A stretch of 4,288 bases of DNA from a virus (taxonomy: Duplodnaviria; Heunggongvirae; Uroviricota; Caudoviricetes): the IMG/VR virus record IMGVR_UViG_2671180547_000009; one strand, given 5' to 3'. The notes beneath the pieces were generated by a model. That model had not been told where the DNA came from, did no database searches, and worked only from the letters and a program-made list of their open reading frames with translations. Below are positions 1 through 4,288 of the stretch, piece after piece (the first letter of the stretch is position 1; each line of letters begins with the position of its first letter). Made by a program: the position numbers and the translations under genes.

Positions 1-157
1 GCTTTGAACTCTTTAGAGTAACGTTGGGTTTTTCTGCTCATTATTAGCTCCTTCTGATGCCATTCTATTTCAGGAAGGAGTGTCCGTTAAACTCAGGCTA
101 CCTCAGGTTATTCGCTTCTGGGCATGGGCGGATCAACAAATGATAGACGGTAATGCA

Positions 158-178
158 GATTGTAACGCTCGCGGCGTT
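158..178. repeat. Palindrome TGTAACGC-N5-GCGTTACA (iteron-like)
   Basis: Left arm 158-165 is the exact reverse complement of right arm 171-178; it shares the GTAACGC core with the palindrome at 371-389. Confidence 0.5.
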
Positions 179-370
179 ACAAAAAGTGCAATAGATCGCA
201 TCACTTTTATGTCTGGTTTTGCTGATGCGTTAATTCAGGTTGGATGGCTGGTCGAAAATGACGGAGGGCTTTCTCTACCTAACTTTGAACGTCATAACGG
301 AAAAAGCTCTAAAAAAAACGGGCGGTTACAAACGAGCGAGTAACAAAAATACGCGAACTGAAACGAAAAG

Positions 371-389
371 GTAACGCTGCCAGCGTTAC
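371..389. repeat. Perfect 19-bp palindrome GTAACGCTG-c-CAGCGTTAC (iteron-like)
   Basis: 9-bp arms are exact reverse complements around a single central C. Further GTAACG/CGTTAC copies lie at 18-23 and 407-412, in an A-rich stretch (about 343-410). Confidence 0.5.
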
Positions 390-788
390 ACAAACGGATC
401 AAAAAGCGTTACCAGAGGAAGAGGAAGAGGAAGATCTAAATACTGATCTCCCCCTCGCCAAAAACGAGCGTCTAAAAAATTCGAGCCGGAGGCTATTGAG
501 CTGCCCGATTGGTTGCCGGAAACACTCTGGCATGAGTGGGTCCGGTTCAGACAGGCATTGCGAAAACCGATTCGAACGGAGCAGGGCGCTAACGGGGCGA
601 TACGGGAACTGGAAAAATTCCGTCAGCAGGGTTTTACACCTGAGCAGGTGATTCGACACAGCATCGCCAATGAATACCAGGGCCTGTTCGCGCCGAAAGG
701 TGTTCGGCCTGAGACGTTGCTCCGACAGGTTAACACCGTCTCGTTGCCGGACAGTGCGATCCCGCCAGGCTTCAGGGGGTAACGGACC

Positions 789-1229
789 ATGAAAAATATT
801 GCGACAGGCGGCGTTCTGGAACGCATCCGCCGACTGACCCCGCCACATGTAACCGCCCCATTCAGAACGGTAGCGGAGTGGCGCGAGTGGCAACTTGCTG
901 AAGGCCAGAAACGTAGCGAGGAGATCAACCGCCTGAATCGCCAGTTGCGGGTGGAAAAAATTCTGAATCGCTCAGGCATCCAGCCGTTGCACCGTAAATG
1001 CTCGTTTGCGAATTACCAGGTGCAGAACGACGGCCAGCGATACGCGTTAAGCCAGGCGAAATCCATCGCCGATGAACTGATGACCGGGTGTACAAATTTT
1101 GCGTTCAGCGGAAAACCTGGTACCGGGAAGAATCACTTAGCGGCAGCTATCGGGAATCGCCTGCTGAAAGACGGTCAGACAGTGATTGTGGTTACCGTGG
1201 CTGATGTTATGAGCGCCCTGCACGCCAGC
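789..1229 (+). CDS. DnaC/lambda-P-like AAA+ helicase loader, 3' part lost in N-run (partial)
   Basis: ATG 789 lies 6 nt after the preceding stop (coupled). Walker A GKPGTGKNHLAAAIG and an N-terminal region resembling DnaC-type loaders. Only 147 codons are defined before the N-run, so Walker B and sensor motifs are not visible. Confidence 0.8.
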
Positions 1230-1270
1230 NNNNNNNNNNNNNNNNNNNNNNNNNNNNNNNNNNNNNNNNN
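1230..1270. other. Run of 41 N (assembly gap or masked sequence)
   Basis: Literal n characters; the true length of the missing sequence is unknown. Confidence 0.95.
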
Positions 1271-1286
1271 AGTTTCAGGAGGATTT

Positions 1287-1709
1287 ATGGCGAAACCTTT
1301 TACTCCCGAACAGCGGGAAGAACTGAAGACGCGAATTGTGGAACTCGTGCATCAGGACGGTCGGGTCACGATTCGGCAGTTGTCAGATGAAACAGGTATC
1401 AGTCGTGCGTCTGTCGGTCGCTTATGCATAGAACTGGTCGCAAGTGGTGATGTATATAATTCTGGCTACGGCTTATTCCCGTCTGAACAGGCTCGCAAGG
1501 ACTGGCAAAGCGCCCGCAAAAAACTCTCGAGAGTAAAGGTGAGGAAACCGGTTGTTGTTGATCCGGACCTTATCTGGTCATTACCTGACGGAGAAATACG
1601 CCGCTACGACAGGCGCCTGAATATAATCTGTCGCGAGTGCCGGAAGAGCGAAGCTATGCAGCGTGTACTGGCTTTCTATCAGGGTAATTTTCAGGAGGCG
1701 ATACTGTGA
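1287..1709 (+). CDS. Helix-turn-helix protein, possibly Ren-like (140 aa)
   Basis: ATG 1287 preceded by AGGAGG (1277-1282, 4-nt spacer). HTH-like segment TIRQLSDETGISRASVGRL near the N-terminus. Its position right after the helicase-loader gene and the C-terminal CRECRKSEAMQRVLAFY match my recollection of lambda Ren (unverified). In-frame continuity with the DnaC-like ORF in the supplied track is an artefact of the N-run. Confidence 0.55.
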   Translation: MAKPFTPEQREELKTRIVELVHQDGRVTIRQLSDETGISRASVGRLCIELVASGDVYNSGYGLFPSEQARKDWQSARKKLSRVKVRKPVVVDPDLIWSLPDGEIRRYDRRLNIICRECRKSEAMQRVLAFYQGNFQEAIL

Positions 1710-2123
1710 ATGAAATTAGCTATCAGGCTTCAATTACCGCTGGCATTCGCATCAAAGGAGAGGAGCATGGAAATAAAACCAGAAGATGAGTTAAGCAATA
1801 TCGTTTTATTTCCGGTAAAAGAGGATGACCCTCGTAATCAGGTTAATTTTCTTTATGAGCCATCGGAAAGACCATATTGCCATCACGCCTCTGTACGGGT
1901 TGACGAAAAAGAGCGTCAGGTCCGCTGTAAAATCTGCGGTGCGGTTGTGGAGCCGTTTGACTGGATGCTCTCTGTGGCAAAAAGAGAAACCAGACTGGCA
2001 GATGATGTAAGGCTATTGCGCCAGGAGGAACAGGAAAGGCGGAGAAATATAGAAAAGCTGATACAGATTGAGCGTAACGCGAAAGCGCGGATACGCAGGG
2101 CGACAAAATCCAGAACTGAATAA
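1710..2123 (+). CDS. Hypothetical small protein with Cys/His cluster (PYCHH...CKIC) and basic coiled-coil C-terminus
   Basis: ATG 1710 directly abuts the upstream TGA (TGAATG), suggesting coupling. An alternative start is ATG 1767, preceded by AAAGGAGAGGAG. C-terminal ...RLLRQEEQERRRNIEKLIQIERNAKARIRRATK is charged and helical. No family recognised. Confidence 0.55.
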   Translation: MKLAIRLQLPLAFASKERSMEIKPEDELSNIVLFPVKEDDPRNQVNFLYEPSERPYCHHASVRVDEKERQVRCKICGAVVEPFDWMLSVAKRETRLADDVRLLRQEEQERRRNIEKLIQIERNAKARIRRATKSRTE

Positions 2124-2270
2124 TTAAATTTAGCACTGTTAAAAATTTAATCCTTAACCGGAGGGATTTCTGCACCCTCAAATCATCAGGAGACCACCCG
2201 AAAGGGCGGGGAGCAGTCACACATCTGTTTCCGATAGCCCCGTTCTAATGCTACACTCTTTGATATTTTT

Positions 2271-2957
2271 ATGACCCCAATAAACATATTTATGACAGTT
2301 GCTGATTTCAAACGGCCCAAATTGGAGCTCCCAAACGGGGCAAACAAACTACTACTGCACTCTTGCTGTGCTCCATGTTCCGGTGAGGTGATGGAGGCGC
2401 TTCAGGCCTCGGGAATCGACTACACCATCTTTTTCTACAACCCGAACATTCATCCTCAGAAAGAGTATTTAATTCGTAAGGATGAGAATATTCGCTTTGC
2501 TGAACAACACGGCGTGCCGTTTATTGATGCTGATTACGACACAGACAACTGGTTTGAACGAGCCAAAGGAATGGAATGGGAGCCCGAACGAGGGATCCGT
2601 TGCACCATGTGTTTTGACATGCGTTTTGAGCGGACAGCGCTGTACGCCGCTGAAAATGGTTTCAGTGTGATCAGCAGTTCACTGGGCATTTCACGCTGGA
2701 AAAATATGCAGCAGGTTAACGACTGTGGGCGGCGAGCCGTCGCGCATTATCCGGGCATGGTGTACTGGGATTATAACTGGCGCAAGCAGGGCGGCTCGTC
2801 CCGTATGATTGAAATCAGCAAGCGCGAAAAATTCTATCAGCAGGAATATTGTGGCTGTGTGTATTCTCTGCGCGATACCAATCTACACCGCAAATCTCAG
2901 GGACGCCCTCTTATCAAAATTGGTCAACTCCACTACGGTAAAGAAGAGAAGGAGTGA
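2271..2957 (+). CDS. queH: QueH-like (DUF208) epoxyqueuosine reductase
   Basis: 228-aa ORF with HSCCAPCS near the N-terminus plus further conserved-looking Cys pairs (CTMC, CGC), matching the Cys-rich metal-binding signature I recall for DUF208/QueH. Alternative start ATG 2292 (MTVADF...). Neither start has an obvious Shine-Dalgarno sequence. Confidence 0.7.
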
Positions 2958-2978
2958 TTTTATGGGGCACCTTTCTGA

Positions 2979-3008
2979 TTGATTTCATATTGGCGAGGTA
3001 AGTAGAAT
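2979..3008 (+). promoter_or_regulatory. Sigma70-like promoter candidate TTGATT-N18-TAGAAT
   Basis: -35 TTGATT at 2979-2984 and -10 TAGAAT at 3003-3008; it uses the same two hexamers as the promoter candidate at 3414-3441. It would drive transcription into the N-run. Confidence 0.3.
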
Positions 3009-3026
3009 GACTGCGGGTGCTTGAGG

Positions 3027-3063
3027 CTATCTGCTTCAGGCATGAACACCAAAAGGCAGATAG
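3027..3063. repeat. 8-bp perfect inverted repeat CTATCTGC-N21-GCAGATAG
   Basis: 3027-3034 is the reverse complement of 3056-3063. It lies just downstream of the promoter candidate, so it could be an RNA hairpin in a 5' leader or a protein-binding site. Confidence 0.4.
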
Positions 3064-3116
3064 AGAAAAGCCCCAGTTAACATTACGCGTCCGGCAAGAC
3101 GCTTAACATTAATCTG

Positions 3117-3326
3117 NNNNNNNNNNNNNNNNNNNNNNNNNNNNNNNNNNNNNNNNNNNNNNNNNNNNNNNNNNNNNNNNNNNNNNNNNNNNNNNNNNNN
3201 NNNNNNNNNNNNNNNNNNNNNNNNNNNNNNNNNNNNNNNNNNNNNNNNNNNNNNNNNNNNNNNNNNNNNNNNNNNNNNNNNNNNNNNNNNNNNNNNNNNN
3301 NNNNNNNNNNNNNNNNNNNNNNNNNN
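3117..3326. other. Run of 210 N (assembly gap or masked sequence)
   Basis: Literal n characters; the content cannot be assessed. Confidence 0.95.
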
Positions 3327-3342
3327 CATCCTCAACGCACCC

Positions 3343-3392
3343 GCACTTAACCCGCCCATCGCTGTGATCTCTCAGCGTTTCGGCGGGTTTTT
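3343..3392 (+). terminator. Rho-independent terminator
   Basis: CCCGCC (3343-3348) pairs with GGCGGG (3374-3379), with an inner stem CGCTG (3352-3356) / CAGCG (3365-3369), followed immediately by TTTTTTGTTGTTT. The minus-strand version lacks a downstream T-run, so it is unidirectional. Confidence 0.6.
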
Positions 3393-3413
3393 TGTTGTTT
3401 ATTTCCGGTGAAT

Positions 3414-3441
3414 TTGATTCGCGCACCTTCGCAGATAGAAT
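3414..3441 (+). promoter_or_regulatory. Sigma70-like promoter candidate TTGATT-N16-TAGAAT
   Basis: -35 TTGATT at 3414-3419 and -10 TAGAAT at 3436-3441, about 80 nt upstream of ATG 3523 and just after the terminator. Confidence 0.4.
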
Positions 3442-3522
3442 CGACTCACTTAAGTAGCGCGCAGGGAGAAGAGGGATGGACCCCGAACAGGGGAGAGCTA
3501 TTTATCTGGAAGGATTCTGAAG

Positions 3523-3810
3523 ATGAAAATCGAAGAATTGCGTGAAATTTTTAGTGAAAATGGCCTCTATGCTGTGCGCGTTGAGAATGGAGCGATTGTC
3601 AGCCATTGCCGCATTAGATGTTTGCAATCTCAACAAAGGAAGAGCGGTGCTGTGTTATTTTATTTTTGTAATGGACTTCTGACGGACGGTTTTATTTTGC
3701 GTGAGGACGAATTTGTCACATCATTACGGGTTTTGAAAGAGATTGGTTTTAAGGCTGGTTTTCTGCTTTTGCTGAAGAATAAACTCATCTACAATCTTGA
3801 GCAGGATTGA
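3523..3810 (+). CDS. Hypothetical protein, 95 aa, AT-rich orphan gene
   Basis: ATG 3523 with GGAAGGA 8 nt upstream; own promoter candidate and upstream terminator; by eye, markedly lower G+C than the replication genes. No family recognised. Confidence 0.55.
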   Translation: MKIEELREIFSENGLYAVRVENGAIVSHCRIRCLQSQQRKSGAVLFYFCNGLLTDGFILREDEFVTSLRVLKEIGFKAGFLLLLKNKLIYNLEQD

Positions 3811-3848
3811 ACTCCTGCTGTGTAACACCGTGCCACCGGAGAAAGCCG

Positions 3849-4202
3849 ATGGCACATATACAACTGGTCAAACAAACCTCTTCCGGATTACTTCTCCCGG
3901 CGACGCCGGAGAGTTGCGATTTTCTGCATCAAATCAAAATAGGTGAGTGGATACACGCAGACTTTAAGCGTGTGTGTAACTACGCATTCCACAAGCGTTT
4001 TTTCAAACTCCTGCAACTGGGTTTCGATTACTGGACTCCGGTCGGTGGGGCGATCACGCCTCGCGAACGAAAACTGGTGTCCGGTTTCGTTGATTACCTG
4101 TGTGAATCAGTAGGCCGGGAACATACGCCAGCTCTGAGCGAAGCCGCAGAGCAATTGAGGTGTACTGGCAATAGCGGACACTACCATTTGTTCTTTTTTT
4201 AA
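3849..4202 (+). CDS. Hypothetical prophage protein, 3' end probably altered by IS insertion
   Basis: The track ORF starts at TTG 3807, overlapping the previous stop; a more likely start is ATG 3849, preceded by GGAG (3838-3841). The stop TAA 4200-4202 overlaps the stop of the minus-strand transposase tail. No family confidently recognised. Confidence 0.5.
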   Translation: MAHIQLVKQTSSGLLLPATPESCDFLHQIKIGEWIHADFKRVCNYAFHKRFFKLLQLGFDYWTPVGGAITPRERKLVSGFVDYLCESVGREHTPALSEAAEQLRCTGNSGHYHLFFF

Positions 4203-4288
4203 GCAGCCATCTGATGATATTTTTCCCTGAAGGCTGCCGGGGAGATATTCCCCAGACGAGAGTGACGACGCTGACGATTGTAGAAAAT
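4199..4288 (-). CDS. IS3-family-type DDE transposase, C-terminal 29 codons (partial, continues beyond window)
   Basis: The reverse complement of 4202-4288 translates to IFYNRQRRHSRLGNISPAAFREKYHQMAA, then stop at 4199-4201. The YN..R.HS.LG..SP..F pattern is the characteristic C-terminal motif of rve-type (IS3-like) transposases. Confidence 0.6.
   Translation of the reverse strand: MFYNRQRRHSRLGNISPAAFREKYHQMAA

Follow-up and report, generated by a model that had tools for sequence, protein, structure and literature searches.

We analysed a stretch of 4,288 nucleotides (nt) from a Caudoviricetes record of IMG/VR (IMGVR_UViG_2671180547_000009), hereafter the window, which carries a cluster of GTAACG(C) palindromes in a replication initiator gene. 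Three elements of this cluster, at 161-181, 371-389 and 406-412, are probably the surviving cis-elements of a lambda-style replication origin within a Rac-type initiator gene. They are conserved at the DNA level, they consist of dyad-symmetric or phased half-sites with the core GTAACGC, and they stand at fixed positions in the initiator gene family. An earlier reading of the window, hereafter the initial annotation, had taken the palindromes to be binding sites of a candidate origin, situated in the inter-domain part of the initiator gene as in phage lambda, and every comparative test run supports this idea at the level of sequence. Alignments identify the window as a decayed Rac-type prophage replication module; positions 105-1229 are 93-99% identical to ydaU-ydaV of Rac-type prophages.

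Elements of the candidate origin in the window

The hexamer GTAACG was found eight times in the window, where 1.39 copies are expected, and GTAACGC six times, where 0.39 are expected. Neither count was reached in any of 200 dinucleotide shuffles, bearing out the enrichment over chance that the initial annotation had claimed. Exact GTAACG copies lie at 18-23, 162-167, 371-376, 779-784 and 2074-2079 on the plus strand and at 175-180, 384-389 and 407-412 on the minus strand. Most of these coordinates agree with those given before, except that the copies at 162-167 and 175-180 had been placed three positions off, at 159-164 and 172-177, and that the first palindrome spans 161-181, extendable to 160-182 with 9-nt arms and a 5-nt spacer, and not 158-178. 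Furthermore, the copy at 18-23, previously counted as part of the initiator gene, lies in the end of an IS600 insertion sequence, where it encodes R-Y of the transposase on the minus strand. The copies at 779-784 and 2074-2080 had been suggested as additional binding sites. The former overlaps the stop codon and is unconserved, the base after GTAAC being A in 34, G in 24 and T in 4 of 62 close relatives, and the latter is a lone half-site, within chance for 4.3 kilobases (kb) and uninformative; both look like chance occurrences. Since the copies at 18, 779 and 2074 fall outside the system, the real cluster consists of five copies.

Site 1, the dyad TGTAACGC-TCGCG-GCGTTACA at 161-181, encodes a loop of the DNA-binding domain with the peptide C-N-A-R-G-V-T. 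Protein alignment revealed a 12-base-pair (bp; 4-codon) insertion at this site that is specific to the Rac-type lineage (DGNA-DCNARGVT, compared with DGNA----SVT elsewhere). A degenerate half-site, GGTAATGC, on the plus strand at 149-156 is what is left of the original left arm of the site, which the insertion displaced. Because this degenerate old arm adjoins the new perfect arm TGTAACGC (161-168), we conclude that the dyad was rebuilt after the insertion.

Site 2, the dyad GTAACGCTG-C-CAGCGTTAC at 371-389, lies in the linker-coding region and is, as described previously, a perfect 19-bp palindrome (arms of 9, spacer of 1) in A-rich surroundings; the segment 301-400 has an AT skew of +0.58 and a GC content of 0.43. 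A degenerate forward half-site, GAAACG, is located 11 bp upstream of this dyad (360-365, plus strand) and fits the forward-forward spacing of 11-12 bp in the family. On the other side, a reverse half-site, GCGTTAC (406-412, minus strand), follows 23 bp, or two 11-12-bp periods, past the right arm of the dyad; it encodes A-L-P and is kept in 73 of 80 close relatives. Two base pairs past this last half-site begins a 21-nt polypurine tract, AGAGGAAGAGGAAGAGGAAGA (414-434, plus strand), which encodes EEEEEE and is followed by an AT-rich stretch, TCTAAATACTGATC; the tract is a candidate DNA-unwinding element. Intact Rac-type genes have a third dyad, TGTAACGCTGCGAGCGTTACA, at -32 to -12 of the start codon, which was lost to IS600 in the window. 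No DnaA boxes were found near the array, and GATC is not enriched in the window overall, with 5 of its 12 copies falling in 131-448.

The initiator gene and its product

The initiator gene (106-782, plus strand) occupies the position of ydaU and was recognized as a pseudogene by alignment to intact homologues of 262 amino acids (aa). It carries three lesions. First, homology to intact ydaU begins at about 105/106, as codons 1-35 and everything upstream have been replaced by IS600. Second, an A-run at 311-318 has eight residues, compared with six in intact genes, resulting in a +2 frameshift. Third, a deletion has removed 10 bp after about 448. In frame 3 (513-782), the DnaT-like domain at the C terminus is uninterrupted. 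A database protein of Shigella sonnei is identical to the truncated, frameshifted, chimeric open reading frame (ORF) of the window, indicating that the decay is real and that the window probably derives from this species. Note that both the A-run at 311-318 and the GAG/GAA repeat at 414-434 vary in length among relatives: protein P0013 contains one Lys more, the Glu run of P0008 is shorter, and the A8 run of the window causes the frameshift. Simple repeats in the origin region thus appear, from these sequences, to be mutational hot spots.

Whereas the window copy is truncated and frameshifted, its intact homologue matches PHROG 2509, "replication initiation protein", over residues 1-262 (E = 1.2e-89), and residues 170-262 match the C-terminal domain of DnaT (PDB 2ru8, E = 9.5e-5). 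The N-terminal domain (N-domain) of the intact homologue had no match in Pfam, including Phage_rep_O and DUF1376, and a search of PDB sequences with an N-domain profile gave no match. In an AlphaFold prediction, the N-domain models as a putative winged helix, with a helix-turn-helix and a beta-hairpin (predicted local distance difference test score 85-92 in the core, mean 67.5). In a library of 1.84 billion proteins, the initiator family comprises 9,785 clusters at 50% identity with E ≤ 1e-3, some low-scoring matches among which may stem from the low-complexity linker, and 3,379 clusters with E ≤ 1e-30.

Conservation of the sites in the initiator family

The sites were compared in three sets of sequences. 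A tblastn search of phage genomes with the N-domain gave 69 records with 24-97% identity, and 17 phages were taken for comparison. A scan of one genome per species with a 5-sequence alignment gave 80 loci, ranging from Enterobacterales to Pseudomonas, Planctomycetota and Verrucomicrobiota. A scan of IMG/VR gave another 80 loci, all of which were 96-100% identical; being nearly identical, these are useless for divergence and useful for spacer drift. In the fetched phages, the dyad GTAACGC-N5-GCGTTAC recurs at gene-relative positions of about +148 and about +357 to +400. The phages bearing it infect Escherichia, Klebsiella, Xylella/Xanthomonas, Pseudomonas and Ralstonia, and environmental phages carry it too.

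The same positions stood out in the 80 species loci, where perfect dyads peaked at +150 (62 dyads) and at +350/+400 (51 and 11), with a smaller peak at -50 (18), compared with about 1-6 in most flanking 50-bp bins and a maximum of 16. The site 1 dyad, at about +148 to +170, is present in 62 of these loci, and the array of site 2 and the linker spans +338 to +413 across the family. Half-sites of the TAACG/CGTTA type number 67-126 per 25-bp bin at the peaks, compared with 2.1 in the background. The dyad upstream of the start codon is missing in most lineages and was found in members of the Enterobacterales.

At site 1, codon choice is nearly fixed. Ser is encoded by AGY in all 33 cases, compared with 32% elsewhere in the same domain, and the other codons of the site are GGT (57/57), AAC (68/68), GCT (57/68) and GTT (66/68), which elsewhere in the domain account for 26%, 63%, 25% and 40%, respectively. 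The segment encodes a low-confidence loop of the structural model, where four additional residues are tolerated in the Rac lineage. All three frames (0, 1 and 2) are used to read site 2; the peptide in Rac, for instance, is G-N-A-A-S-V-T, and that in TL-2011b is V-T-P-T-A-L. In addition, the arms are invariant among the 80 near-identical copies from E. coli and Shigella, and the 5-bp spacer drifts. These patterns indicate that selection at the sites acts on the DNA and not on the protein.

The spacing of half-sites in the linker is regular. Between two forward half-sites (FF) it is 12 bp in 41 cases and 11 bp in 10, between a forward and a reverse half-site (FR) it is 12 bp in 74 cases, and between two reverse half-sites (RR) it is 11 bp in 38 cases, 12 bp in 9 and 23 bp in 14; the usual orders are FFRR, FFFRR and FRR. 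A polypurine tract of 15-33 nt, AGAGAAGAGAAGAGAAGAGAAGA or a GAGGAA variant, begins 2-3 bp past the last half-site in 41 of 55 loci. Its DNA is nearly identical even in genomes with 60-65% GC, and it encodes an acidic linker (EEEEEE or REEKRREE). The window matches this layout, with the degenerate forward half-site at 360-365, the dyad at 371-389, the reverse half-site at 406-412 and the polypurine tract at 414-434.

Distances between the centres of the site 1 and site 2 dyads cluster at 189, 198, 207-209, 219 and 231 bp, that is, in steps of 9-12 bp. This is suggestive of insertions and deletions between the dyads that preserve helical phase, a reading confounded by shared ancestry and by the periodicities of codons and of half-sites.

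Half-site specificity and distribution in whole genomes

Divergent lineages carry other half-sites, and they switch the half-site at all sites of a genome together. In phage Raharianne the half-site is GTAGACG, at positions 153, 166 and 369. GTCCGC is found in epsilon15 and BUCT711 (66 and 345/354), as well as in Carin1 at its site 2 (343). GTCAC occurs in Vibrio phage 1.211 and the species-scan locus L150, with the loop residue changed from Asn to His, and loci L131 and L146 have GTGAC/GTTAC with Asp at the loop position. The half-site co-varies with the N-domain lineage, in the classes GTAACGC, GTCAC, GTAGACG and GTCCGC. The genes around the initiator vary among phages, both upstream (cII/ydaT, KilAC or methylase genes) and downstream (DnaC-like, lambda P-like, DnaB, DUF1064 or RuvC genes, with DUF977 present or absent). 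Since flanking genes and loaders differ between phages, the N-domain is the sole constant partner of the sites.

A motif equally frequent throughout related genomes had been named in the initial annotation as an outcome that would speak against an origin; the motif was instead found to be concentrated at the initiator in whole phage genomes. In phage 673R7 (37.8 kb), a 510-bp segment at the initiator contains 8 of the 12 GTAACGC copies, together with each of the three full dyads (P = 5e-13). The initiator likewise accounts for 8 of 18 GTCCGC copies in epsilon15 (P = 3e-11) and for 4 of 11 copies in Xylella phage Usme (P = 6e-6), which has two F-R-R-R arrays elsewhere. These extra GTAACGC arrays of Usme, at 26978-27020 and 42584-42626, show the 11-12-bp period and lie outside the initiator gene without a polypurine tract. 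A minus-strand gene beside ssb has one of them at its 5' end; the second lies between genes, with an ATG following 12 bp downstream. Their role could be regulatory, or they could serve as secondary origins.

A model of origin function and its alternatives

If the sites form an origin, the putative winged-helix domain at the N terminus would allow dimers of the initiator to bind each 19-21-bp dyad, as well as the flanking half-sites, which follow the 11-12-bp period. The resulting nucleoprotein complex would destabilise the adjacent polypurine/AT-rich stretch, from 414 to about 448, and the C-terminal DnaT-like domain would recruit YdaV, the DnaC-like loader, together with host DnaB. Auxiliary roles would fall to the distal dyad, in the part coding for the N-domain, and to the upstream dyad, 12-32 bp before the start codon in intact relatives; both may give cooperative looping and/or autoregulation.

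Several points weigh against such an origin. Homology between the N-domain and lambda O was undetected (hhalign probability 0.2%), and the N-domain lacks a match to Pfam Phage_rep_O. We found no binding or origin-activity experiments on the initiator family in the literature searched. The sites are spread over about 400 bp, compared with about 85 bp for the four iterons of lambda, and the polypurine tract is only moderately AT-rich. The extra arrays of Usme lie outside the initiator and lack the polypurine tract, so the binder may also, or instead, be a regulator. Finally, because the initiator of the window is a pseudogene, no present function can be claimed, and the origin would be an orphaned relic. 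The system is dead in cis here, since the upstream dyad and codons 1-35 are lost, the gene carries two frameshifts and the loader is incomplete. Firing of the origin of the window would require that a phage, either co-resident or infecting, provide the same initiator in trans.

The alternative that fares best is that the dyads are operators, through which the initiator or another phage regulator autoregulates the replication operon, by promoter occlusion upstream and by roadblocks inside the ORF, with replication starting elsewhere. The dyad of intact Enterobacterales relatives at -32 to -12 lies over the ribosome-binding region, and the arrays of Usme, one of them intergenic at 12 bp before a gene start and the other at the 5' end of a minus-strand gene, have no polypurine tract. 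On the other hand, the upstream dyad is missing in most lineages, and what is conserved universally is the linker array with the polypurine tract directly beside it, at the gene position of the proven origin of lambda. Operators would also leave unexplained the conservation of the polypurine-tract DNA in genomes with 60-65% GC. We therefore consider operators without an origin unlikely; note that the two roles can coexist.

It is very unlikely that a different protein binds the sites, either a host factor or a prophage protein such as the DUF977 protein (1287-1709). DUF977 has clear winged helix-turn-helix matches, and binding of the dyads by the initiator is itself deduced from sequence comparison. 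However, phage Rac (MN652886), 673R7, TL-2011b, Usme, VW-6S and others keep the dyads without DUF977 in the fetched neighbourhood, and neighbouring genes, repressors and loaders all differ among dyad-bearing phages. The half-site classes follow N-domain lineages, not hosts, and DnaA boxes were not found near the array.

Hairpins in mRNA or single-stranded DNA, acting in processing, stability, attenuation or as an antisense terminator, are if anything even less probable as the reason for the palindromes. The RNA folds are stable (-15.9 and -16.3 kcal/mol, z of about -3.6), and the minus strand of 389-371 was flagged as terminator-like in a scan, owing to its A-rich upstream flank. Yet the arm sequence itself, beyond pairing, is conserved across phyla, separate sites of one genome change to the same new sequence, and direct-repeat half-sites at 11-12 bp (FF in 51 cases, RR in 47) are unable to pair. 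Moreover, one array is intergenic, and with respect to transcription the arrays run in either direction. An antisense terminator at 389-371 was rejected, as the T-run is missing in Pseudomonas and Xanthomonas members.

Chance, or a coding by-product in the form of a repeated G-N-A-x-x-V-T peptide, is almost certainly not the source of the cluster: both dyads of the window are in the same frame and encode similar peptides, but none of the 200 shuffles reached the count, synonymous positions are fixed, site 2 is read in three frames, dyads also occur upstream of the ORF and, in Usme, in intergenic DNA, and the encoded segment is a low-confidence loop tolerating a 4-residue insertion.

The prophage remnant and its borders

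The window begins with the end of an IS600 copy of the IS3 family (1-105, minus strand), identified by a 100% match to an annotated "IS3-like element IS600 family transposase". It carries the transposase start, terminates in ...CCTCA at 105, as read off the sequence, and has taken the place of both the upstream dyad and the 5' end of the initiator gene. Another IS600 copy (4156-4288, minus strand), recognized from the IS600 annotation, has the same orientation, contains the transposase 3' end and truncates the DUF1367 gene, whose homology to the intact gene stops at 4155. The prophage remnant (106-4155) is thus bracketed by two IS600 copies of the same orientation, an arrangement resembling a composite transposon or a substrate on which IS-mediated deletion could act.

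In the intact relative E. coli FDAARGOS_944, a dicA-like repressor, a cro/cI-type regulator, ydaT and the ydaU-type initiator gene (262 aa) are followed by ydaV (DnaC-like), DUF977, a hypothetical gene, queH, hokD, another hypothetical gene and DUF1367. In the window, the 5' part of ydaV (789-1229, plus strand) encodes a DnaC/IstB-like helicase-loader ATPase, as assigned from Pfam matches to IstB_IS21 and Bac_DnaA, the annotation of relatives and alignment. A run of 41 N at 1230-1270 stands where about 304 bp of the ydaV 3' part lie in intact relatives; the run may mark a genuine deletion whose junction is masked, or it may be a mask or gap in compressed form. Downstream of ydaV, here and in FDAARGOS_944, are genes for a DUF977 winged-helix protein (1287-1709) and then a 118-aa protein (1767-2123) with a weak match to a TFIIB-type zinc ribbon; in phage Rac (MN652886) and phage 673R7, these two genes are replaced by ydaW (DUF1627) and lygF. 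The next gene, queH (2271-2957), encodes epoxyqueuosine reductase QueH according to the annotation of the relative and is an unusual tRNA-modification cargo gene for a prophage, placed between the replication genes and hokD. A run of 210 N at 3117-3326, between queH and a 95-aa ORF at 3523-3810, coincides with the hokD locus (hok/mok/sok type I toxin-antitoxin) of intact relatives.

Wider implications

For the window itself the message is modest, namely a dead, IS600-flanked remnant with surviving cis-sites. For the family, we raise more tentatively a wider proposition, to which we give somewhat less than an even chance: that this is an undescribed and very widespread origin architecture, in which the initiator gene carries its own binding sites, even in the segment for a loop of its own DNA-binding domain. 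If this is true, a change of binding specificity rewrites the protein, as in GTAAC to GTCAC, which turns Asn into His, and the main reason for the conserved acidic linker "REEKRREE" would be the (GAAGA)n unwinding element that its DNA forms. Looping would let the distal dyad cooperate with the linker array, at separations of 189-231 bp in steps of about one turn, and the origins of thousands of prophages in Pseudomonadota, Planctomycetota and Verrucomicrobiota would be predictable from sequence alone.

The family covers the Rac-type prophages of E. coli and Shigella, epsilon15-like and TL-2011b-like phages, and many phages of Pseudomonas, Xanthomonas and Ralstonia. A described origin for it was not found in the literature searched, where a paper on Pf-5 deals with an oriV of the plasmid type. 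If the sites are the origin, they would provide a sequence-level origin definition for a large, cross-phylum family of temperate-phage replication modules. The gene would also be a natural example of overlapping constraint, with codons of a protein dictated by the binding sites of that same protein. Furthermore, the specificity classes GTAACGC, GTCAC, GTAGACG and GTCCGC could predict replication incompatibility or trans-activation between co-resident prophages.

Comparison with known origins

Iterons of plasmids with a winged-helix Rep protein, such as the RepA/RepE class and the staphylococcal initiator 4pta, are usually direct repeats outside the rep ORF. The sites described here differ in lying inside the ORF, where they constrain its codons, and sequence homology to the iteron plasmid origins is absent.

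The Rac prophage of E. coli K-12 is closer. It is reported to have an active origin, oriJ (PMC3945230), and it shares with the window the prophage type, the ydaU-ydaV order, a nearly identical loader and a nearly identical C-terminal half of the initiator. The K-12 YdaU protein aligns with the window-type initiator from AAGATCTAAA onward, homology resuming just past the repeat array. The N-domains differ, as that of K-12 YdaU is DUF1376 (PF07120, E = 2.7e-26), whereas the window-type homologue is without a match (hhalign probability 0.2% against DUF1376). The linker of K-12 ydaU (locus L004, 2472-2578; +353 to +459) contains four copies of (A)GATGTTCAA and an inverted TGTTTGAACA, and no GTAACGC. 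A sequence-level mapping of oriJ was not found in the literature searched; at that level, the K-12 ydaU repeats are a plausible iteron candidate for oriJ.

Lambdoid origins consist of iterons and an AT-rich tract in the middle of gene O, bound by the O protein to form the O-some (PMC7466680). The annotated iterons of the lambda origin lie at +349 to +433 of O, each an 18-19-bp inverted repeat, and are followed by the purine run AAAAGAAAAAAGAAAAGA. Compared with this origin, as the initial annotation had recommended, the sites of the window have the same gene-relative position (+359 to +412) and the same layout of iterons and then a purine run. There are also differences. The usual linker array here has two to three forward and then two reverse half-sites, in contrast to the four tandem dyads of lambda; an extra conserved dyad lies about 190-230 bp upstream, within the part coding for the N-domain, to which Enterobacterales add one before the start codon; and the candidate for unwinding, in lambda a strongly AT-rich block, is here a (GAAGA)n polypurine tract. 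In both systems, the sites lie within the ORF of the initiator, where the linker joining its DNA-binding and loader-recruiting domains is encoded, they are 19-bp dyad-symmetric repeats (7-nt arms and a 5-nt spacer, with half-sites about 12 bp apart), and a purine-skewed tract follows the last repeat. As in lambdoid origins, specificity is modular, the N-domain and the repeats being swapped together.

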